Of a stretch of 64,000 bases of DNA, positions 14,194-58,593 are shown one piece after another. Position 1 is the first letter of the stretch. Every line of letters starts with the position of its first letter. The stretch covers positions 7,401-71,400 of the forward strand of contig CAZLQF010000014.1 in NCBI GenBank assembly GCA_964561545.1. The letters are read 5' to 3'. Under the pieces are notes generated by a model. It was not told the origin of the DNA. It did no database searches and worked only from the letters and a program-made list of their open reading frames with translations. A program made the translations under genes and the position numbers. Origin of the DNA: an uncultured Sphingobacteriales bacterium (GTDB lineage Bacteria; Bacteroidota; Bacteroidia; CAILMK01; CAYYUA01).

Positions 14194-16281
14194 ATGAATC
14201 TAATTAGACCTCTTAATTTATTAGCACTCTTTCTACTGCCACTCACCTTACTTAGTCAGAAAGATGAGAAGTTTTGCGGGACTGATGAATACTACCAGGA
14301 TCAATTGGAAAAGAATCCTGAATTAAAAAAATTAGAACAGGCGTCTAATGATTTTGCTGAAGGTTATCAACCACCCATGACCAAAAATGGGCAAAAGTAT
14401 ATTATACCAGTAGTTTTTCACGTCATGCACACCTATGGGCCCGAAAATGTGGATAAAGAAAGAATCCTGGCCAATTTTAAGACGTTAAATGAAGATTACC
14501 AAAAACAAAATTCAGATACTCAGTTCGTAAGAGATCAATTTAAATCCCTAATTGCTGACCATAACATTGAGTTCCGCTTAGCAAGGGTTGATCCCCAAGG
14601 CAATTGTACGGATGGTATAGAAAGGCATTATTCAGAAAATACCAACAGTGCCAATGACAATGTAAAGCGCGAAGTACAATGGGATCCGGACAGGTATTTA
14701 AACGTATGGATTGTAGGAACAATAAATCGCGGTGGCAATACCAACATTGGGGGTTACGCCAATTTTCCTTGGGATAAGCCTTACAAGGATAATGATGGCA
14801 TTGTAATTATAGCCAGGAGCATTGATGGAGGTGATCGAACATTAACCCATGAGGTAGGCCATTATTTGGGGCTTTACCACCCGTTTCAAGGAGGATGTAA
14901 TCAGTGGAATGTTAATAGTAATGATGAGGTAGACGATACTCCTATGACTGAAGACCGGGACGGCATTATAAGTAGTTGTGATGGCCGGAATACTTGTGAT
15001 CTGGATTTTCCACAAGGACAGGACAAGCCGGATATGCTCGATAATTTTATGGACTATACCCCTTGTGGTCGAATGTTTACTAAAGGCCAGAAAACCAGGA
15101 GCCTGTCTTATTTAGATCCCAATAATACTAATAATAGGGCGCAAATGGTATCGCAATCCAATTTGGCTTATACAGGCGTATTGGATACCATTCAAAATAA
15201 AAAACCCCTTGCTTATTTTGATACTGAGGAAAAAGAAATTTGTTCAGGAGATTCAACCCAATTTGAGCAGGTTACATGCCAAGGTAACCCTGACTCATTT
15301 AAGTGGTATTTCCAAGGAGGCGAGCCCAAGGTTTCAACCAAAGCCAACCCTCAAGTATTGTACAAGGACACGGGTAGTTACAACGTGACCTTAGTGGTTG
15401 CTAATGAGAACGGTAAAGACAGTGTTACCCTTAAAAATCATGTAAATGTAATTCAAGGAGAACCAGTGAGCTCTAATCCATTTCAAGCAAATCTGGACTC
15501 AGGCAATTTGAAAGCTAAAGGGTGGCGTTTTAAACAAACCCTTCCTGATGACACGGGTTGGCAATTGTCCTCCAAAGCATCATTCACTGGCACTAAAAGC
15601 CTTTATTTAAATAATTACAACCTTGATAGAGAGAACTTAACTTATTCGGTAATTACCCCTAAACTCAATCTTTATGAACCCAAAAGTATCAAACTTACTT
15701 TTAATTATGCTTATGCCAATCTTTCCAATTCTTCTACCGATAAAATGACCATTGAAGTCTCTAACGATTGTGGAGCTACCTGGAAATCAGTGGCCAATAT
15801 GTTTAACCTGACATTAAAAACCACTGATAATCCTGTCAGTGAAGATTTTGTTCCAAGCCCTAACCAATGGGATGAACAAGTTGTGAATTTTAACACGGTT
15901 GATTCCGGACAAATATTCCTTAAATTCAATTTTATTACTGGTAAAGGCAATAATATCTATATGGACAATATTAGGTTTGGCTACTCGGTAGGTATGGAGG
16001 AAAGGGGCAACCAGCAAGGGCAACTGCGCTTATATCCCAACCCAGTTCAGGACAAATTGAACCTGTCAATAAGTAATGTGAGCGCTGGCAATGCGCAATT
16101 AACGATAAGAAATATGGTAGGTCAGGAACTAAGTAGGCGGAACATTCAATTAAACAATCCTACGGAAAATAATGTTAAATTGGACGTTGAAAATTTGAAC
16201 ATTCAAGATGCAGGCGTTTACTTCTTGATGGTTGAAACTGAAGATTCCAGAATTGTTAAAAAGTTTAACTACGTTAAATAA
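14194..16281 (+). CDS. M43 (pappalysin/cytophagalysin-type) zinc metalloprotease with T9SS C-terminal sorting domain
   Basis: Signal peptide, HEVGHYLGLYHPF zincin motif (HExxHxxGxxH) with the Met-turn region NFMDYT, beta-rich middle domains, and a C-terminal T9SS CTD (LRLYPNPVQDKLNL...AGVYFLMVETEDSRIVKKFNYVK). Confidence 0.8.
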   Translation: MNLIRPLNLLALFLLPLTLLSQKDEKFCGTDEYYQDQLEKNPELKKLEQASNDFAEGYQPPMTKNGQKYIIPVVFHVMHTYGPENVDKERILANFKTLNEDYQKQNSDTQFVRDQFKSLIADHNIEFRLARVDPQGNCTDGIERHYSENTNSANDNVKREVQWDPDRYLNVWIVGTINRGGNTNIGGYANFPWDKPYKDNDGIVIIARSIDGGDRTLTHEVGHYLGLYHPFQGGCNQWNVNSNDEVDDTPMTEDRDGIISSCDGRNTCDLDFPQGQDKPDMLDNFMDYTPCGRMFTKGQKTRSLSYLDPNNTNNRAQMVSQSNLAYTGVLDTIQNKKPLAYFDTEEKEICSGDSTQFEQVTCQGNPDSFKWYFQGGEPKVSTKANPQVLYKDTGSYNVTLVVANENGKDSVTLKNHVNVIQGEPVSSNPFQANLDSGNLKAKGWRFKQTLPDDTGWQLSSKASFTGTKSLYLNNYNLDRENLTYSVITPKLNLYEPKSIKLTFNYAYANLSNSSTDKMTIEVSNDCGATWKSVANMFNLTLKTTDNPVSEDFVPSPNQWDEQVVNFNTVDSGQIFLKFNFITGKGNNIYMDNIRFGYSVGMEERGNQQGQLRLYPNPVQDKLNLSISNVSAGNAQLTIRNMVGQELSRRNIQLNNPTENNVKLDVENLNIQDAGVYFLMVETEDSRIVKKFNYVK

Positions 16282-21193: not shown

Positions 21194-21886
21194 ATGAAGC
21201 AAGCATTACTTTTTATTATCTTAGTATGGGGAGCGGTCTTGACAGGACATGCTCAAGAAGAAAACGGGTTTGAATTAGATTTATCCCAAATGCCCGATGA
21301 AGTGGTTAGGGATTCTGTTTATAGCTTTAGCATACCTTTAGAATTTACAGGGGATACCTCTCACAATACCAAAATACATTTGGTCTATGCTATCAATAAT
21401 GGCTCGCCCCAATTCGATATGGAGCACCGTGAGCAAAGTGAAAAGTTTTCGGTCAGCCCTCAGGATAACAGAGATACCATAAATGTCGATACCTTTCGAT
21501 TTTCTTCAGCCAAGGTTGATAAGGGGGTTAATGTTGTTGAAATATGGCCTGCTACGCCTGATACCACGGTCTTAGGGGATACAGCAACCAAACAGATCAC
21601 TGCGGTAGATAACTCAACAGGAGGGCTTCACAATCCCAAAAACCAAGATTTAAAAATTTACCCCAATCCAACATCGCAAAAATTAAAGCTTAACAGCAAT
21701 CATTGGGAACTTAAAGAGCTAACTATTTTCAACGACCAAGGAAAGCAGGTTAAAAGCTTTTCAAAACCAGCCCAATCAGTTTTGGTCGGTGACCTCCCCA
21801 AAGGACTTTACATTTTAAAAGCTCGTTTAACATCTCAATCCTTAGATGAAGCGGTAATTACCAAAAAATTGATTTTGAATAGGTGA
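21194..21886 (+). CDS. secreted protein with T9SS C-terminal sorting domain
   Basis: Signal peptide plus C-terminal KIYPNPTSQKLKLNS...GLYILKARLTSQSLDEAVITKKLILN CTD. Confidence 0.65.
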   Translation: MKQALLFIILVWGAVLTGHAQEENGFELDLSQMPDEVVRDSVYSFSIPLEFTGDTSHNTKIHLVYAINNGSPQFDMEHREQSEKFSVSPQDNRDTINVDTFRFSSAKVDKGVNVVEIWPATPDTTVLGDTATKQITAVDNSTGGLHNPKNQDLKIYPNPTSQKLKLNSNHWELKELTIFNDQGKQVKSFSKPAQSVLVGDLPKGLYILKARLTSQSLDEAVITKKLILNR

Positions 21887-48593: not shown

Positions 48594-50879
48594 ATGGATG
48601 TTTACCTAAAAACCCTGATCTTGTCTATTGCAATATTATTAGGCCAACAAAATGGTTCTATTGCCCAAACCACCCTCCAAGGCAAAGTAATTGATGAAGT
48701 TAGTGAGGAGCCGGTGCAGGGTGCTAATGTTCAATCCTTAAAGCTTAATCGGCAAGCAGTTACGAATGCCAATGGGCAGTTTGAACTCAAGTTAACAGTA
48801 GCTAACGATACGCTCAAGATTTCCCATATAGGTTACGAAGCGAAGTATCTGGCAGCCAAAAAGGGAAGAAATAATACCTATGCACTGATGCCCACTTCCC
48901 TTAATAAGCAAGAAGTGAAGGTAGAAGCTTACGAAGAATCGATTCCCTTTGAAAATGTGGCTGGCGGCATGAATCTCCTCAATAAAAAGGACTTGCAACG
49001 GGATGCCGAAGTTAGTATGGTTTCATCGTTAAGCCGGGTGCCGGGTGTATTGTTTCAAAATGGTACCTTTTCTACTGGCAAGATGTCCATAAGAGGTATT
49101 GGATCAAGATCCCGATACACCACTACCAAGATTAAGGCCTACTACCAGGGGATTCCTATTACTACAGGAGAAGGAGTTACAACCATTGAGGATTTAGACC
49201 CTGAGCTAATGCAAAAAACAGCAATTCTCAAAGGGCCTTCATCCAGCATTTATGGCGCTGGATTGGGAGGTGTGGTGTTGTTAAGGCCCGATTATGGAGA
49301 ATCCGGACAATCATCCATCTCTCAAAAAACCATGATCGGATCTTTTGGGTTGTTTAAAAGTCATACGGCTTTCCAGCACAGCGAGGATGGTAGCCAATTT
49401 TCAGTCAATTACCTTAACACTCATAGTGATGGATGGCGTGATAACAGCACTTATGACAAGCACACCATCAATGCCAACGGAGCTTTTGATGTTGGTGAAG
49501 ATGCCCAACTTAACGTACTTGCATCTCATATTGAAACGAAGGGGTTCATTCCAAGTTCTCTTGATCAATCAACATTTAACAACAATCCTTCTGCGGCAGC
49601 AGAAAGCTGGGACAATGCCAAGGGCTATGAGGATTATAGCAAAACCTTGTTGGGCTTGTCTTTAAATGCTGAGGTGGCTCAGAACCTGCATCAAACCACC
49701 AGTATTTTTGGGCATTTTAAGCACAATGATGAACCACGTCCTTTTAATGTGCTTAGGGAGGGCAGGTTTTCCAGGGGTGCACGGACTAAATGGGCTTATA
49801 CCCCTACCATAGGGAATGTCCAATCTACTTTTATCGTGGGCGGTGAATACTTCAATGAATGGTACAAATGGCAAATATTTGAAAATGTAAATCGCTCAAT
49901 TGGGCCGCATATTAATGAAAATGAGCAATGGCGTACCTATCTAAATTTATACGCCAAGGGGAGTTTTTCTTTGAATACCGGCACCCGCATAACCGCTGGC
50001 GTTAATTACAACCATACCAATTACGAATTGACTGATCTTTACATAGATACCGTTAACCAAACCGGTGATTATTCATTTAACCCAATAATTTCACCTCGAT
50101 TGGGGATCAGCCAAGCGATAACTGATCAAATCCATGTATTTGCATCCGTAAGCCATGGTTTTTCGACCCCAAGTGTTTCAGAGACTTTAACACCTCAAGG
50201 GCAGCTCAATTCGGATGTTGAACCAGAGCATGGATGGAGCTATGAGTTAGGTTCCAGGGGCCAATTGTTCAACCATCTTTACTACAACTTAACCCTATTC
50301 CGGATGGACTTGGAGGACAAGTTGGTTGCGCAACGGGTTGCGCCTGACGCTTATATTGGGGTTAATGCCGGAGCTACCGGGCATGAGGGGTTTGAGTTAA
50401 CCACTGGTTATCACTTGGTTACTGGAAGTTCTGCTTTCCAATACGTGCATCCTTATTTAAATTATACCTATGGGAATTACCGTTTTGAGGAGTTTCAGGA
50501 TGAAGGTAAAGTCTATGATGGCAATCGCTTAACGGGTACTACCCCTCACCAACTTACTGCTGGCCTCGATGTGCGGGGGCCTTGGGGGCTTTATACCAAC
50601 CTTGTTTACGAATACCAGGATGAATTGGTCATGAACGATGCCAACACTGAGTTTGCCGAATCCTATGGCTTATTAAACGGTAAATTGGGAATTGAAAGGC
50701 AATTTGGCAACTGGCAATTCAACTTCTATGCCGGCCTCAATAACATACTGGATGAACACTACGCGGCTATGACGGTGGTCAATGCACCTGGTTTTGGCGG
50801 GCCGCCCCGTTATTATTATCCCGGTAAGCCGCAGAATTATTATACAGGATTGAAGATCAAGTATTTAATTGGTAATTAA
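48594..50879 (+). CDS. TonB-dependent receptor with N-terminal carboxypeptidase-regulatory-like domain
   Basis: Signal peptide, a CarbopepD_reg-like domain (LQGKVIDEVSEEPVQGANVQ), a plug region, and a long beta-barrel with TBDR-like periodicity. Confidence 0.7.
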   Translation: MDVYLKTLILSIAILLGQQNGSIAQTTLQGKVIDEVSEEPVQGANVQSLKLNRQAVTNANGQFELKLTVANDTLKISHIGYEAKYLAAKKGRNNTYALMPTSLNKQEVKVEAYEESIPFENVAGGMNLLNKKDLQRDAEVSMVSSLSRVPGVLFQNGTFSTGKMSIRGIGSRSRYTTTKIKAYYQGIPITTGEGVTTIEDLDPELMQKTAILKGPSSSIYGAGLGGVVLLRPDYGESGQSSISQKTMIGSFGLFKSHTAFQHSEDGSQFSVNYLNTHSDGWRDNSTYDKHTINANGAFDVGEDAQLNVLASHIETKGFIPSSLDQSTFNNNPSAAAESWDNAKGYEDYSKTLLGLSLNAEVAQNLHQTTSIFGHFKHNDEPRPFNVLREGRFSRGARTKWAYTPTIGNVQSTFIVGGEYFNEWYKWQIFENVNRSIGPHINENEQWRTYLNLYAKGSFSLNTGTRITAGVNYNHTNYELTDLYIDTVNQTGDYSFNPIISPRLGISQAITDQIHVFASVSHGFSTPSVSETLTPQGQLNSDVEPEHGWSYELGSRGQLFNHLYYNLTLFRMDLEDKLVAQRVAPDAYIGVNAGATGHEGFELTTGYHLVTGSSAFQYVHPYLNYTYGNYRFEEFQDEGKVYDGNRLTGTTPHQLTAGLDVRGPWGLYTNLVYEYQDELVMNDANTEFAESYGLLNGKLGIERQFGNWQFNFYAGLNNILDEHYAAMTVVNAPGFGGPPRYYYPGKPQNYYTGLKIKYLIGN

Positions 50880-53921: not shown

Positions 53922-55736
53922 TTATTCCGCCAATTGCTGAAGTTCATATAAATGACGGTAGAGCCCTTCTTGCTCAATAAGTTCTGCATGGCTTCCAACT
54001 TGAACGATGTTGCCCTTTTCTAAAACGACAATTTCGTCTGCTTCCTGAATGGTGCTGAGGCGGTGTGCAATAATAACCGTGGTTCGGTTTCGCATTAAGC
54101 GGCTTAGGGCTTCTTGAACGATCTTTTCAGATGATGTATCCAGGGCAGAAGTGGCTTCGTCCAGGATCATGATGGGCGGGTTTTTAAGTATAGCCCTGGC
54201 AATGCTTAGGCGTTGCCGCTGCCCACCCGATAAGAGCACACCCCGGTCGCCAATGAAGGTTTGATAACCCTCATCACATTCTACAATAAAATCGTGGGCA
54301 TTGGCAGATTTGGCAGCTTCAATGACTTGCTCTTCCGTAACTTCTTCCATGCCAAATGCAATGTTTTTAAAAATCGTATCATTGAAAAGAATGGGATCCT
54401 GGGTAACCAGCCCGATTTGTTTTCTCAAGGAAAATAGGTCATAGTCCCTTGCGTCAATATCGTCAATGTAAAGGTTGCCTTCGGTAGCTTCGTAAAACCT
54501 TGGGATCATTTCAGCCATGGTAGTTTTGCCACTTCCAGAAGGTCCTACAAGCGCATAAGCTTTACCTTTAGGGATCTTTAAGTTAACGTCTTTCAGCACC
54601 CGGTCCTTAGAATAGGAAAATGATACCCCGTCAAATTCAATGGATGCTTTAAAATCGTCAAGGGGCTTCCCTCCATGTTGCTCTTTCTTGGTGCCCGGCG
54701 CATCCATTACGTTAAAAATCCGTTCACCGCTCGCGATCCCGCGGTAGATGTTACCAAAAGCATTGGAAATATTTTTAGCTGGATTCATGATCTGCTGGAA
54801 ATAAAAAATATAAACGAGGAACCCAGAGGCCCTTAGCTCACCTTCAAAAACCAACTGACCACCAAACCATAAGATGAGGCCTACCGTAATAACTCCCATT
54901 GCTTCCGAAAAAGGGGGTACCAGCCGCTGTTTGTAAAACTGCCGCTTGAGGTGGTGGCTGTATTTTTCATTGTAGCTGCCAAAAACCTTGGCAATGTATT
55001 TCTCAGCATTGAAAGCCTTGATGATCTTGACGCCTGAAATCACTTCATCCAAAACGCTCATGATCCAGGCCATCATATCCTGCGTGTTGTAGGCATCTTT
55101 GCGCAATGATTTGGCAAGCGTAGTAATTATCAAGGCAGTAATTGGTAGCACCGCAAAAATGAACAAGGTTAATTTCCATGAGTAGCTAAACATCAAGAAC
55201 AAAAAGAAGAGAATAGTAATAGGAGCTCGGATCAGGGATTGAAAGGTGACCACCACGGATTTTTCCACTTCGTTTACATCAGAAGTCATGCGTGAAATAA
55301 TGTTCCCTTTTCGTTCTTCTTCAAAGTATCCAACCGGCAGGGATTTGATCACTTCGAACAGCCTCGTTCGAATGTCTCTGATGACGCCAGTTCTAATGAT
55401 GGCCATGAATATGGCCGAGAGGTACTTAAATACATTACCAATTAAGTTAATGCCAACAATAAAACCAATGGAAATGGCCAATGCCTGTACTTTGCCCTGT
55501 TCTTCAATGATTCCGGCTATGTATTGATTGAAAATTTCATTGAATTTTAGCGAAAATTGTTCGGTGTTCAGCGAAGATGGGCTCTTTTTTTCGGTGAACA
55601 GTAAATTAAGGACGGGATCCAATAAAGACAAGGCAATACCTGTAGCAAATACGGCTATGATGGCAAATAAGGTATGAAAAACAACCTGCCAGCCATAAGG
55701 TTTCGTAAATTTGAGAATGCGCCAGTAAATATTCAT
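53922..55736 (-). CDS. ABC transporter ATP-binding/permease protein (MsbA-like lipid exporter, type I exporter)
   Basis: 604 aa. Six-TM domain followed by an NBD with Walker A GPSGSGKTT, signature LSGGQRQRLSIARA and Walker B ILDEATSALD. Confidence 0.9.
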   Translation of the reverse strand: MNIYWRILKFTKPYGWQVVFHTLFAIIAVFATGIALSLLDPVLNLLFTEKKSPSSLNTEQFSLKFNEIFNQYIAGIIEEQGKVQALAISIGFIVGINLIGNVFKYLSAIFMAIIRTGVIRDIRTRLFEVIKSLPVGYFEEERKGNIISRMTSDVNEVEKSVVVTFQSLIRAPITILFFLFLMFSYSWKLTLFIFAVLPITALIITTLAKSLRKDAYNTQDMMAWIMSVLDEVISGVKIIKAFNAEKYIAKVFGSYNEKYSHHLKRQFYKQRLVPPFSEAMGVITVGLILWFGGQLVFEGELRASGFLVYIFYFQQIMNPAKNISNAFGNIYRGIASGERIFNVMDAPGTKKEQHGGKPLDDFKASIEFDGVSFSYSKDRVLKDVNLKIPKGKAYALVGPSGSGKTTMAEMIPRFYEATEGNLYIDDIDARDYDLFSLRKQIGLVTQDPILFNDTIFKNIAFGMEEVTEEQVIEAAKSANAHDFIVECDEGYQTFIGDRGVLLSGGQRQRLSIARAILKNPPIMILDEATSALDTSSEKIVQEALSRLMRNRTTVIIAHRLSTIQEADEIVVLEKGNIVQVGSHAELIEQEGLYRHLYELQQLAE

Positions 55737-55993
55737 TGCGGGGCAAAATTAGGGCTTTGTTGAGACAAAAGATAAAAGCGCCAAGACATAAGCCTGTTTG
55801 CATTACAACTGCAATATAAAGTTAAGTGCTTGTAAGAGATTACCGAGATAAAGGATAACTTAACCGCTTAGATTTAGGGGTGTTTGCAGTAAATTGAAAT
55901 CAACAAACGATGGTGTGCTGCAATTTTAAAACAATGGTTTAAGCGCTTGTCAAAGACGAGGGCAATTGGGTTAATGCGTACCATTGTTATCCT

Positions 55994-57145
55994 TTACTTA
56001 AATGGATTGCTGTATTGGGGGTTTTTGATGAACGAGGAATCGGTAAAGGTTTTCAAAAAATTGATCAAGTCCTGCTTTTCCTGATCAGTGAGGTTGACGC
56101 CCCCGGTTCGAAAATAGCCATCGTCACTGGGTGGTAAATGTTTCCGTATATTGGAATTAACATTGGTGGCTGGTTGTAGGTTGTCGCTGTAAAAATTGAT
56201 AACCTCTTCCAAGGTAGCAAATCGGCCATCGTGCATGTAAGGTGCTGTCAAGGTGACGTTCCGCAAAGTGGGGGTCTTAAACTTGCCGTTGTCCTTTTTA
56301 TTGCTGGTAATTGTTCCCCGTCCCTTATCCGGAAAATCAAATTCATTAGGACCTAATGAATCTAAGCCATTGTTATGGAAGTTGTTGTCAGTGAGTAAAA
56401 CCTGGGATGATGGGATGCCATGACAATGAAAGCAATCAGCCTGTTCAGAAGTATACAAGATCAGGCCATTCCGCTCAGATGAGGTTAAGTTGACTTCACC
56501 CCTCAAGAAACGGTCAAATTTGGAGTCGGCCGAGATCAGGGTGCGCTCGAATTGAGCTATGGCCTTAGTGACCAAATGCCTTGTTATTTCTTGGTCGCCA
56601 AAAGCTGCTTCAAACAGGGAGGGATACTCCGGGTGCCTTTTTAGCTTGTTTTCCACCCGCTCCCAGCTTTCCATCATCTCCAACGGGTTGGTAACAGGCT
56701 CCAGGGCTTGCTCCTCTAAAGTGTTCGCACTACCGTGCCAATTAAAGGTTGGATAAAAACCTACGTTAGCCAGGGACATTGCATTCCGAACGCCTTGAAA
56801 GCCTGAAACACCCTTGTTAAACTTAACATCACTGGCGAAAGCATTTTTTTGTTGATGACAGGTTGCGCAGGCTATGGTACTATCGCGCGATAAGATCGGA
56901 TCGTAAAACAGCATGCGCCCCAATTCTACGCCCTCTTCCGTCATTGGATTGTCCTCAGGAATATCCATTTCAGGGAAAAGCGATGGAATGTCAAGGTTAT
57001 AGGGAGTGCCGGCCATTTCTTCTTTTGATCCTGAGTTATCCCTGGGTTCAAAGGGCTCATACTCTGGATCCCTTTCACAACTATAAACCATAAAAGCTCC
57101 CAGTGCAATGAAGAAGCAAAACTTAATTAAGGTGTTAGGCTTCAT
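55994..57145 (-). CDS. di-haem cytochrome c peroxidase (MauG/CcpA superfamily; MbnH-like)
   Basis: Two CxxCH haem motifs (CATCHQQ and CFHCHG). The PTLRNV region is typical of bacterial CCP. Signal peptide present. Confidence 0.85.
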   Translation of the reverse strand: MKPNTLIKFCFFIALGAFMVYSCERDPEYEPFEPRDNSGSKEEMAGTPYNLDIPSLFPEMDIPEDNPMTEEGVELGRMLFYDPILSRDSTIACATCHQQKNAFASDVKFNKGVSGFQGVRNAMSLANVGFYPTFNWHGSANTLEEQALEPVTNPLEMMESWERVENKLKRHPEYPSLFEAAFGDQEITRHLVTKAIAQFERTLISADSKFDRFLRGEVNLTSSERNGLILYTSEQADCFHCHGIPSSQVLLTDNNFHNNGLDSLGPNEFDFPDKGRGTITSNKKDNGKFKTPTLRNVTLTAPYMHDGRFATLEEVINFYSDNLQPATNVNSNIRKHLPPSDDGYFRTGGVNLTDQEKQDLINFLKTFTDSSFIKNPQYSNPFK

Positions 57146-57211
57146 TGAATGTATCAGGTTTTAAGTACAAATGTTAATTAACCTTTAATTGGTTGCTTTA
57201 AGCCCTAAGCG

Positions 57212-58039
57212 TTATTGCTGCTTTTTCGATTTCAAAGAAAATAAATCTTTCCGACCATTTTCCATTAGCGTTTGCTGGATTGCTTGATTCATCATGATGC
57301 CCTCATTTTCGAGGCTGGAAAACTTGTAAGTATTCGGGTTCTCATACCATTTGTTCAAATCCATTCCTACCATCAATTGCCGAGCATTGTCATTCACACT
57401 AAGGTTTAGATTATCAAATTTGACCTCAAAAGAAAAATGTTGAAGAGGCCCCGTTTGGGTAGGGGAGGTGGTGCTCATGTCCCATTTTTTGGCATTACCC
57501 AAGTGAGTGGTAAAGCCATCCTCGGAGCCTGAACTATCATAGACGCCATTCATCCGCATGTAATGATAACCACCGCCATTCATTTCTGGCCATGCCATGT
57601 TGTTGAAATTTTGAGTATTGGGAAGCTTACCGGTTTGATTTTTACTGGAATCTATGCCAAAAGTAAAAGCCATGGCATTGTAATCTCCATTGGGCAAATT
57701 TTCAAAGGTTAAACTTTTTGTACCATCTTTATTTGGATTTACATAATGGCTGGTGTCGAACTCTACAATACTTCCATTTGCCTTAAAAAGGCGGAAATCA
57801 GTGAGGATGTATTCGAGTTTTGTAACCCCATATTGCTCGCCGGCTTGATTGGTGTACTTCATCGAATCAAATAATAGGTCTTGTCCGTCTACATTATGGC
57901 TAAATGAAAATGTTACGCTACCAGTTTGGTTTTGAGCATCGTTAGGATTGCCACCGTTTTCATCATCATCATTGCATGAAAGAAAAATAAAAGGTAAGGT
58001 AAGGAAAACTACAAGGGAAAAAGTTGTAAATTGCTTCAT
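57212..58039 (-). CDS. MbnP-like periplasmic (copper-binding) lipoprotein partner of the di-haem peroxidase
   Basis: Lipoprotein signal (FIFLSCNDDD). About 250-aa beta-rich protein with a conserved-looking NMAWPEMNGGGYHYMRMNG segment. It sits immediately upstream of, and co-oriented with, the CCP gene, matching the mbnP-mbnH arrangement. Confidence 0.45.
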   Translation of the reverse strand: MKQFTTFSLVVFLTLPFIFLSCNDDDENGGNPNDAQNQTGSVTFSFSHNVDGQDLLFDSMKYTNQAGEQYGVTKLEYILTDFRLFKANGSIVEFDTSHYVNPNKDGTKSLTFENLPNGDYNAMAFTFGIDSSKNQTGKLPNTQNFNNMAWPEMNGGGYHYMRMNGVYDSSGSEDGFTTHLGNAKKWDMSTTSPTQTGPLQHFSFEVKFDNLNLSVNDNARQLMVGMDLNKWYENPNTYKFSSLENEGIMMNQAIQQTLMENGRKDLFSLKSKKQQ

Positions 58040-58206
58040 GGTGGAATATAAATTTTATTAGACAATTTGTTCAATCGGCAAAACGCTTAATTTATGAGGT
58101 TTAGTTTCTTTTAAAAGGGCCATTTAAATTTTTGTAGCCTTTAATTGGAAATAAATAGATGTTTCGTACTTTTGCAGCTGCAAAAATAAAACCGTACTAC
58201 GTAATT

Positions 58207-58593
58207 ATGCAGCGACAATACGAAACAGTGCTTATTTTAACCCCGCTTTTAACAGATGAGCAGGTTAAAGAAACTGTTAAGCGATTCAAAGAATTGTTAG
58301 AAAAAGAAGGGGCTGAGCTGATCCATCAAGAAAATTGGGGTTTGAAAAAGCTCGCTTATCCCATCGATAAAAAATCCACTGGTTTTTACCATTTATTTGA
58401 ATTCAAAGCTTCCCCTGAATTTATTACTAAATGGGAAACGGAATTCAAACGCGATGAACGTGTAATGCGCTTTTTAACCGTTCACCTTGACAAATACGGT
58501 ATTGAATACAATGAAAAGCGGAACAAAGGTGAATTAGGTCGTAAAGCCAAACAAGAAGTCAATCAGGGAACAGAAGAAGAAGAAGTTAAATAA
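58207..58593 (+). CDS. rpsF: 30S ribosomal protein S6
   Basis: [15 protein letters not shown]...[15 protein letters not shown] is the S6 signature. The track ORF begins 48 nt upstream at 58159, but the internal ATG at 58207 matches the canonical S6 N-terminus. Confidence 0.9.

Follow-up and report, generated by a model that had tools for sequence, protein, structure and literature searches.

The window is a stretch of 64,000 nucleotides from an uncultured Sphingobacteriales bacterium. Its minus strand carries two open reading frames, encoding an MbnP-like protein and an MbnH-like di-haem enzyme. Both lie at the coordinates proposed in the original prediction, and the gene order given there is confirmed as well: the MbnP-like gene is located upstream and is followed, after a gap of 66 nt, by the co-oriented MbnH-like gene (Table 1). 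In relatives the gap between the paired genes is typically 0 to ~100 nt, or the reading frames overlap. No terminator-like site was found in the region 55600..58300, and we infer that the two genes are co-transcribed. A sigma-70 promoter scan of the locus is uninformative for Bacteroidota.

The pair sits amid housekeeping genes, and no copper-related gene or regulator was found within the window. The ABC exporter encoded downstream (53922..55736) was considered as a part of the module and rejected, given that no ABC-transporter family is present among the neighbour clusters common to at least 4 of 80 collected loci. Two proteins whose genes adjoin the pair in other genomes, a lipoprotein of ~120 aa and a Cys-rich protein of ~126 aa, have no counterpart in the window.

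Table 1. Genes, motifs and residues of the MbnP/MbnH-like locus (positions in the window)
Feature	Position	Strand	Comment
MbnP-like lipoprotein gene	57212..58039	-	275 aa; predicted to serve as substrate and to bind the metal
Lipobox L20-S21-C22 of the MbnP-like protein	57974..57982	-	Cys22 in 81/81 relatives
Acidic run N-D-D-D-E after Cys22, MbnP-like protein	57953..57973	-	
M148-A149-W150, MbnP-like protein	57590..57598	-	counterpart of canonical M-A-W174, first Trp of WxW
G155-G-G-Y-H-Y-M-R162, clade-specific motif	57554..57577	-	canonical family has Q-A-G-R-K-F at aligned positions
H179, candidate His ligand of the metal site	57503..57505	-	invariant in 81/81 relatives
Intergenic spacer between the MbnP-like and MbnH-like genes	57146..57211	-	66 nt
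MbnH-like di-haem MauG-type enzyme gene	55994..57145	-	383 aa; also predicted lipoprotein
Lipobox Y-S-C23 of the MbnH-like enzyme	57077..57085	-	Cys23 kept in 65/66 partner enzymes
C93-A-T-C-H97, first haem-binding motif	56855..56869	-	66/66 partner enzymes
W136, position of the inter-haem Trp of bCcP and MauG	56738..56740	-	in FNWHGS, usually FWDGR
C238-F-H-C-H242, second haem-binding motif (six-coordinate haem)	56420..56434	-	66/66 partner enzymes
Y319, predicted axial Tyr ligand of the six-coordinate haem	56189..56191	-	marks MauG/MbnH-type enzymes

The upstream product is, as claimed, a lipoprotein of 275 aa: its N-terminal signal peptide ends in the lipobox L-S-C22 (MKQFTTFSLVVFLTLPFIFLSC, followed by NDDDENG). 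For the pair as a whole the claim was incomplete, the lipobox Y-S-C23 of the peroxidase having been missed. The acidic run after Cys22 fits the published Bacteroidota lipoprotein export signal, which consists of a polar residue at +2 and then acidic residues (PMC5080379), and from this fit we infer that the MbnP-like lipoprotein may be exposed at the cell surface. The string C-N-D-D-D-E is near the consensus of that signal.

The 275-aa protein matches the Pfam MbnP profile (PF20243) with 104.8 bits (E 6.7e-30), above the gathering threshold of 27 bits, over profile positions 1–182 of 189, so that the proposed membership in the MbnP family is borne out. Fold searches assign to it the MbnP fold as in 7L6G, the only structure that scored strongly; identity to 7L6G in structural alignments is only ~14–16%. 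Sequence-only PDB searches, started either from the window protein alone or from the profile of the clade alignment A1, did not find 7L6G, and therefore homology to it is demonstrated via the canonical-family profile and the fold. The TIGR04052 model (MbnP_like_WxW) is matched weakly by 30 of 40 clade members (best E-value 1e-11), and the window protein misses its equivalog cutoff (25.6 vs 140 bits). Taken together, homology, fold and conserved synteny show the 275-aa product to be a protein with the MbnP fold.

In canonical MbnP the aligned counterparts of M148 and W150 are M169 and W171, both invariant. Canonical W171 is residue 149 of the 7L6G chain and becomes W174, the number given to the Trp oxidised to kynurenine in 7L6G (published review, PMC11951088), if a signal-peptide offset of 25 is applied; this offset was picked to match the published numbering. 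The position of H179 is that of H242 in canonical MbnP, an invariant His of the HLGS/HVGS motif. M148 and W150 are invariant in all 81 relatives, and neither belongs to the pattern used to collect them. M148 and H179 are the only His/Met residues shared invariantly by the window clade and canonical MbnP. Thus, as far as sequence comparison goes, Met-x-Trp and His are the only ligand-type residues kept from the canonical family and mark a minimal conserved site, with W150 as the predicted kynurenine precursor and M148 as a candidate Cu ligand.

Other canonical features are missing. Of the two Trp of WxW only the first is present (the window protein reads W150-P151-E152, and the hhalign column opposite the second is variable in the clade, M, L or N). 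The four Cys invariant in the canonical alignment (C248, C260, C303, C312) have no equivalents, the only Cys of the window protein being Cys22 of the lipobox, and the second invariant His of canonical MbnP (in LNHS) is not conserved in the clade. An added motif, GGGYHYM(R/K), shows little or no variation in set A1, which was collected independently. Its invariance in the 80 loci is circular, since these were gathered with GGGYHYM(R/K) as the search pattern. The clade-specific block Y158-H159-Y160-M161 suggests that the metal site may differ from the canonical one; H159 or M161 may be extra ligands.

The 383-aa product contains the two CxxCH motifs claimed for it (C93ATCH97 and C238FHCH242) and matches Pfam CCP_MauG with 197.7 bits. 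Compared with the alternative classes named in the prediction (CcpA and MauG), MbnH is the best match among both NCBIfam models and solved structures. The best model, TIGR04039 (MbnH), scores 301.4 bits and falls short of its cutoff (362.85); TIGR03791 (MauG) scores 178 bits at a cutoff of 444. In PDB, 6e1c (MbnH) scores 226.8 bits, bCcPs at most 155.8, MauG ~100, and 6nx0 (BthA) ~50. TIGR04039 is matched by all 36 clade enzymes tested, the window enzyme having the best E-value. The identity of 6e1c as BthA was considered and ruled out: 6e1c matches the MbnH of the Methylocystis mbn operon at 557 bits, while BthA fits 6nx0 (477 residues). BthA is a longer protein, with Tyr463 (PMC6405878).

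By homology, the haem bound at C93ATCH97 would be the peroxide-binding one, and the distal Glu is E156. W136 occupies what we take to be the position of the inter-haem Trp, assigned from the WDGR motif. It is invariant in the alignment A2, which takes in MauG and canonical MbnH, and is found in 65 of 66 partner enzymes; the role of the inter-haem Trp is described in PMC6405878 and PMC11892367. The column of Y319 holds Tyr294 in Paracoccus MauG and a Tyr in 6e1c; in the bCcPs 2c1u and 3o5c the residue is Met (for Tyr-His vs Met-His haem ligation see PMC6405878). The alignment of Y319 with Tyr294 was obtained with the C-terminal segment alone as the query. Methylobacterium MauG was dropped as a bridge to Tyr294, given that it scores bCcPs above Paracoccus MauG. 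Of 66 partner enzymes, 65 have Tyr at the Y319 column and one has a gap. Homology, fold and conserved synteny identify the 383-aa product as a MauG/MbnH-type di-haem enzyme.

The expected co-occurrence across genomes was observed. The MbnH-like gene lies directly downstream of the MbnP-like gene in 63 of 77 informative loci from several phyla, with otherwise unrelated flanking genes; in ~11 of the 77 loci there is no peroxidase within 8 kb of the MbnP-like gene. The clade is distributed in FCB-group phyla, including Bacteroidota, Latescibacterota, Gemmatimonadota and related phyla. The MbnP-like and MbnH-like genes travel together across phyla, as the conserved synteny shows. An identical peroxidase was found on independent metagenome contigs, and so were MbnP-like proteins from the cluster with at least 90% identity that contains the window protein. 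The pair is real and widespread, yet the family is already known and annotated, and for the window itself the finding is correct annotation rather than a discovery. Close relatives of the peroxidase are labelled simply ‘cytochrome c peroxidase’ in public sources, a label that could lead one to ascribe H2O2 detoxification mistakenly to thousands of genes.

The statement that methanobactin genes are absent agrees with our searches: MbnB, MbnC, MbnM and MbnF from the Methylocystis operon had no phmmer match with E<=0.01 in six frames of the window; mbnA is too short for a reliable search. The TonB-dependent receptor (TBDR) noted at 48594..50879 is indeed one (Pfam CarboxypepD_reg, Plug and barrel) and is, as stated, not adjacent to the pair, its gene lying on the other strand at a distance of 5.1 kb, beyond five unrelated genes. 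As a part of the module it was rejected: it is unrelated to MbnP-linked TBDRs, and it matches models of PqqU and of siderophore receptors better than the copper receptor model. Overall, the PF20243 match, TIGR04039 as the best model, Y319 and the conserved pairing support the idea of an MbnP/MbnH-like pair outside a methanobactin context.

We consider it probable that the pair is a self-contained MbnP/MbnH-type module of a divergent FCB-group clade, making a Trp-derived copper site. The MauG-like di-haem enzyme most likely oxidises one Trp of its partner lipoprotein, yielding a copper-binding site. Both proteins would be exported via Sec and lipidated at Cys22 and Cys23, respectively, and two c-type haems would be attached to the peroxidase at C93xxCH and C238xxCH. 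The five-coordinate haem would be the site of the reaction with peroxide, and the second haem, ligated by His and Tyr319, would help to form a bis-Fe(IV) oxidant, as in MauG and MbnH. This oxidant would act on the partner protein and convert W150 to kynurenine, which together with M148 and H179 would create an MbnP-like Cu(I) site. Given a Cu(I) site, the MbnP-like protein would be a lipid-anchored copper-binding protein for methanobactin-independent acquisition or handling of copper in the envelope. Several observations stand against the copper-module reading, namely the missed cutoffs of TIGR04052 and TIGR04039, the absence of three canonical features (the second WxW Trp, the four-Cys motif and the His of LNHS), the Y158-H159-Y160-M161 block with its hint of a different site, copper-model scores of the TBDRs below that model's cutoff, the lack of a copper-related gene or regulator in the window, and ~11 of 77 loci with no peroxidase nearby.

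Some of the same differences fit an alternative in which the MauG-type enzyme modifies the lipoprotein otherwise, producing a Trp/Tyr-derived quinone or a Y158-H159-Y160 cross-link, and the lipoprotein is redox-active or catalytic or binds another metal, e.g. iron. Such a product would be in line with the nearly invariant GGGYHYM(R/K) in place of canonical QAGRKF, with the loss of the second Trp, the four Cys and the LNHS His, with both equivalog cutoffs being missed, and with the variety of cofactors built by MauG-family enzymes, TTQ by MauG and kynurenine by MbnH (PMC11951088). We nevertheless regard it as unlikely: the invariant Met-x-Trp and His are the residue types reported for the Cu site and are common to canonical MbnP, the pair-linked TBDRs of Bacteroidales are closest to copper receptors, and there is no positive sign of another metal or cofactor.

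The peroxidase could also be an ordinary periplasmic CcpA detoxifying H2O2, the lipoprotein being functionally unrelated or serving as an accessory or anchor. The public label of close relatives, the fairly good scores of bCcP structures (up to 156 bits) and the breadth of Pfam CCP_MauG, which takes in both classes, are compatible with a CcpA. It is made very improbable by Y319, a Tyr in nearly all partner enzymes and the equivalent of MauG Tyr294 at the Met-ligand column of bCcPs, by MbnH being the best match among structures and NCBIfam models, and by the strict conservation of gene order with an MbnP-fold protein in several phyla. It is hardly credible that the pair has no present function in this organism and survives as an inactive or decaying remnant, as could be imagined from the housekeeping neighbourhood with neither metal-related genes nor a regulator. 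Both reading frames are intact and retain every family-invariant residue, none of the 36 clade enzymes tested matches the MbnH model with a better E-value than the window peroxidase, and the identical peroxidase and MbnP-like proteins of the same >=90% cluster recur on independent metagenome contigs.

Among known systems, the closest to the pair are MbnP/MbnH of Methylosinus trichosporium OB3b (7L6G, 6e1c) and the stand-alone ‘metallo-mystery pair’ (TIGR04052/TIGR04039, GenProp0940) of Proteobacteria. Compared with canonical MbnP, the window protein has M-x-W-P for WxW, lacks the four Cys and the LNHS His, and has the added GGGYHYM(R/K). Both window partners are lipoproteins, whereas the canonical proteins have no lipobox; the window pair scores below the NCBIfam equivalog cutoffs and belongs to FCB-group phyla rather than Proteobacteria. 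The system of MauG and pre-methylamine dehydrogenase likewise features a di-haem enzyme with a Tyr-His second haem (Y319 corresponds to MauG Y294). MauG oxidises Trp residues of a partner protein via bis-Fe(IV) in TTQ biosynthesis; in contrast, the window lacks mau genes, and the substrate has the MbnP fold instead of being the MADH beta subunit. CcpA (1iqc, 2c1u, 3o5c) shares the CCP_MauG fold, two c-type haems, the inter-haem Trp and the distal Glu (E156), but has a Met axial ligand at the Y319 column and no conserved MbnP-type partner gene, and reduces H2O2 for detoxification.

MopE/CorA of methanotrophs are surface or secreted Cu proteins with kynurenine at the Cu site and an adjoining gene for a di-haem peroxidase of the MopG/CorB type (PMC3621798, PMC11951088). 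According to a review, their copper-protein fold differs from that of MbnP (PMC11951088), and no sequence or fold match of MopE or CorA to the window MbnP-like protein was seen. BthA of Burkholderia (6nx0) is a MauG-like di-haem enzyme with Tyr-His ligation and a bis-Fe(IV) state (PMC6405878); it differs in having no inter-haem Trp and in its partner, a putative phosphatase and not an MbnP-fold protein.

Only a few proteins, MbnP among them, are known to have a metal site with a kynurenine derived from the protein itself. In a version that is lipid-anchored and divergent in sequence, the partnership of an MbnP-fold protein with a MauG-type enzyme reaches Bacteroidota, Latescibacterota, Gemmatimonadota and related phyla. 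It is a rather unlikely possibility that in Bacteroidota the clade is a surface-displayed copper-capture system, a SusD-like or hemophore-like ‘cuprophore’ feeding an OprC-type TonB-dependent copper receptor. The MbnH lipoprotein would then face the periplasm and oxidise the Trp, and the MbnP-like lipoprotein would subsequently be flipped to the cell surface. In this reading the Y-H-Y-M block could supply further ligands or another cofactor made from the protein. Such capture would fit the gene arrangement in Bacteroidales, that is, TBDR, small lipoprotein, MbnP and MbnH; the TBDRs linked to the pair there are closest to copper receptors, with copper-model scores below the cutoff of 472 bits. 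If true, a major phylum would have a hitherto undescribed route of copper uptake, and a kynurenine site would serve a new purpose. Tractable targets for studying the role of MbnPH outside methanotrophs include Chondrinema litorale, which is in culture, and those Bacteroidales loci that carry copper-type TBDRs.

The lipoprotein and peroxidase genes are read in the same direction, the lipoprotein gene lying upstream of the peroxidase gene and a 66-nt spacer separating the two. These coordinates, the shared orientation and the mbnP-mbnH-like order are exactly those of the original prediction, and the two CxxCH motifs it assigned to the peroxidase gene are seen in the translation. No terminator-like site was found between or downstream of the two genes. 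The upstream neighbour is the divergent rpsF-rpsR-rplI, 119 nt off, and an MsbA-like ABC exporter follows downstream after a 257-nt gap.

Features of the window and of loci from other genomes (L handles; coordinates as locus:range)
Feature	Location	Strand	Details
MbnP-like lipoprotein gene	57212..58039	-	275 aa; N-terminus MKQFTTFSLVVFLTLPFIFLSC then NDDDENG; signal peptide ending in lipobox L-S-C22
Lipobox-Cys region, MbnP-like	57953..57976		
Peroxidase gene	55994..57145	-	383 aa; C93ATCH97 and C238FHCH242
Lipobox-Cys region, peroxidase	57056..57079		
Inter-haem Trp motif, peroxidase	56729..56746		F-N-W-H-G-S, residues 134-139
TonB-dependent receptor (TBDR)	48594..50879	+	
Shikimate kinase			between TBDR and pair; our reading of the translation
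DUF1573, dehydrogenase, KsgA-type rRNA dimethyltransferase (Pfam RrnaAD), ABC exporter			between TBDR and pair
Type IX sorting-domain proteins	14194..16281, 21194..21886	+	
Kinase/regulator arrangement	L007:6975-9880		also about 26 other Latescibacterota and Gemmatimonadota loci
Bacteroidales TBDR cluster	L051:1717-6546		also L054, L061, L069, L072, L084, L087
Two adjoining pairs	L003:7421-13270		Chondrinema litorale plasmid NZ_CP111054.1
Peroxidase-less loci	L027, L033, L039, L058, L059, L067, L073, L074, L075, L083, L085		

The peroxidase could be MbnH/MauG-like, as originally proposed, or a canonical bacterial cytochrome c peroxidase (bCcP/CcpA). The top NCBIfam model was TIGR04039 (MbnH family di-heme enzyme) with 301 bits, under its cutoff of 363, the MauG model being well below at 178 bits; TIGR04039 matched 36/36 tested enzymes of the divergent FCB-group clade, the window enzyme having the best E-value of the set. 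The closest solved relative was 6e1c (227 bits), which, given its 557-bit match to the mbn-operon MbnH of Methylocystis, is an MbnH structure. Canonical bCcPs (up to 156 bits), Paracoccus MauG (about 100) and BthA (50) scored lower, although among bCcP/MauG structures raw bit-score ranking is unreliable for class assignment and the axial-ligand column is reliable, since one MauG (locus L088, Methylobacterium sp. DM1 plasmid, with mauG annotated within the mau cluster alongside amicyanin and mauJ) gives about 197 bits with canonical bCcPs and only about 95 with Paracoccus MauG. The six-coordinate haem separates the classes, with Met-His ligation in bCcPs and Tyr-His in MauG (Tyr294) and BthA (PMC6405878). 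Direct alignment of the C-terminal segment places Y319 of the window enzyme opposite MauG Tyr294 (ILFY294N) and the 6e1c tyrosine (IDIYSE), whereas bCcPs 2c1u and 3o5c have Met in this column (KIMS, NTMAD). Of 66 partner enzymes, 65 keep Y319 and one has a gap; both CxxCH motifs occur in 66/66, and W136, which occupies the inter-haem Trp position, in 65/66. The enzyme is therefore of the MauG/MbnH type, not CcpA. The motif at its inter-haem Trp differs from the F-W-D-G-R usual in bCcPs, MauG and most clade members, near a Ca2+ site; its closest relatives have NWHGS or NWDGS.

The copper site of MbnP consists of His, Met, a solvent ligand and kynurenine-174, which MbnH makes out of the first Trp in a conserved WxW; the W174Y mutant binds much less copper (PMC11951088). 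In the MbnP structure 7L6G this motif reads G-M-A-W-N-W, its first Trp being chain residue 149 as counted through the alignment, which equals W174 only with a signal-peptide offset of 25, picked to fit the published numbering. Clade and canonical profiles were mapped onto each other, and columns at least 85% conserved in both were listed. Identical residues common to both are L84, G118, Y120, F125, G128, N134, M148, W150, G157, H179 and G181. Of these, only M148, W150 and H179 are of ligand type; they correspond to canonical M169, W171 and H242 (Methylocystis numbering). Each of the three is invariant across 81/81 sequences from species-representative genomes and lies outside the motif pattern used to find those genomes. 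Thus the clade keeps the modified Trp, a Met two residues before it and a His, and conservation suggests that M148 and H179 are the equivalents of the copper ligands. Unlike canonical MbnP, the clade has not kept the second WxW Trp (the window protein reads M-A-W-P-E), the four Cys behind the family's older name or a second invariant His (LNHS), and an invariant or nearly invariant block G-G-G-Y-H-Y-M-(R/K) replaces Q-A-G-R-K-F.

Homology, fold, residue conservation, enzyme class and gene coupling of the window pair are observed; its chemistry and metal are what we infer. Both partners would be exported and then lipidated, and the peroxidase would mature with two c-type haems. Peroxide would react at the five-coordinate haem, the Tyr319/His-ligated haem permitting a bis-Fe(IV) oxidant, as happens in MauG and MbnH. 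The partner's W150 would be oxidised to kynurenine, and Cu(I) would be bound by kynurenine-150, M148 and H179.

A lipobox cysteine is present in 81/81 MbnP-like proteins (Cys22) and 65/66 peroxidases (Cys23), and both window partners are predicted lipoproteins, whereas the canonical proteins have no lipobox. The lipoprotein export signal of Bacteroidota consists of a polar +2 residue followed by acidic residues (SDDDD, SDDFE, QKDDE; PMC5080379). C-N-D-D-D-E of the MbnP-like protein fits it, so surface exposure of the copper-binding partner is a possibility; C-E-R-D-P-E of the peroxidase fits less well, and the two proteins might therefore reside on opposite faces of the outer membrane.

A search of one-genome-per-species contigs with the GGGYHYM[RK] motif alone gave at least 599 stretches, 597 of them confirmed relatives, spread over Bacteroidota (Sphingobacteriales, Bacteroidales, Flavobacteriales, Chitinophagales, Cytophagales), Latescibacterota, Gemmatimonadota, Calditrichota, Eisenbacteria, Chlorobiota and a few others. 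When 1.84 billion representatives at 50% identity were searched with a profile, 5,525 proteins matched at E<=1e-3, of which 2,856 reached E<=1e-10. The neighbourhood survey covered the best 80 of the at least 599 loci. In 66/80 the MbnP gene has an MbnH-like gene no more than four genes away, and in 63/80 directly downstream; the order was always P then H, usually with a gap of 0 to about 100 nt or an overlap. Since three of the 14 loci missing the peroxidase are contig ends, 77 loci are informative, and the peroxidase gene is directly downstream in 63 of these. No other neighbour family common to the whole set was found in these 80 loci, and in three contigs studied in detail the flanking genes are wholly different. 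The window pair is a conserved module. The window comes from an uncultured Bacteroidota: an identical copy of its peroxidase occurs on metagenome contigs, and the >=90% cluster of the window protein includes a member labelled 'Bacteroidetes bacterium SW_10_40_5'. In about 11 loci the MbnP-like gene keeps intact equivalents of M148, W150 and H179 but has no MbnH-like gene within 8 kb; there the enzyme may be encoded elsewhere or the Trp left unmodified.

A 2013 paper described stand-alone MbnP/MbnH pairs, conserved 'far beyond' methanobactin producers (PMC3621798), the Pfam MbnP model covers the FCB clade, and in a plasmid record (PLSDB/RefSeq) a Bacteroidota homologue already bears the name 'MbnP family protein' beside 'cytochrome c peroxidase'. 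Hence the window pair is a correctly identified divergent member of a known family. Our literature search found no paper on the FCB clade, whose peculiarities are notable, not categorically new. The absence of a methanobactin context was borne out, as phmmer with MbnB, MbnC, MbnM and MbnF found no homologues in the window. Its larger ORFs are housekeeping only (including leuS, topA, tsf-rpsB, accC, efp, photolyase, transporters; names are our reading of Pfam matches), with no copper, cytochrome oxidase or regulator genes among them.

In seven Bacteroidales loci a TBDR, a lipoprotein of about 120 aa without Pfam or NCBIfam match, MbnP and MbnH form a cluster in that order; in L054 and L061 the peroxidase gene is upstream of the TBDR instead. 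TIGR01778 (TonB-dependent copper receptor) was the top model for 6/6 full-length receptors (222-261 bits, under the cutoff of 472, yet 60-100 bits over the next model), which links the clade to copper independently of MbnP homology. The window's only TBDR was confirmed and was, as predicted, about 5 kb away and not adjacent (5.1 kb, opposite strand, five genes between). It matched best the PqqU model (179 bits, far under the cutoff of 1200), plus siderophore receptor models, and not the copper receptor model; being unrelated to the MbnP-linked receptors, it was rejected as part of the module.

As a lineage-specific addition, loci of Latescibacterota and Gemmatimonadota have a dCache-HAMP-HisKA sensor kinase together with a sigma-54-dependent response regulator directly upstream of, and divergent from, the MbnP-like gene; these two could be a dedicated regulator or mere lineage synteny. 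At L003 the two plasmid-borne pairs run in opposite gene order, H-P first and P-H second. A Cys-rich protein of about 126 aa without family match comes before each (homologues in L053, L060), and a 327-aa hypothetical protein follows (relatives in L035, L043, L053, L064). Type IX secretion C-terminal sorting domains occur in two window proteins, of which one is an M43 metallopeptidase that also has a PKD domain; this agrees with the window being of Bacteroidota origin. Two family representatives from the profile search, P0059 (499 aa) and P0062 (520 aa), have roughly double the usual length and two profile-matching stretches each, and appear to be tandem-duplicated MbnP-like proteins.
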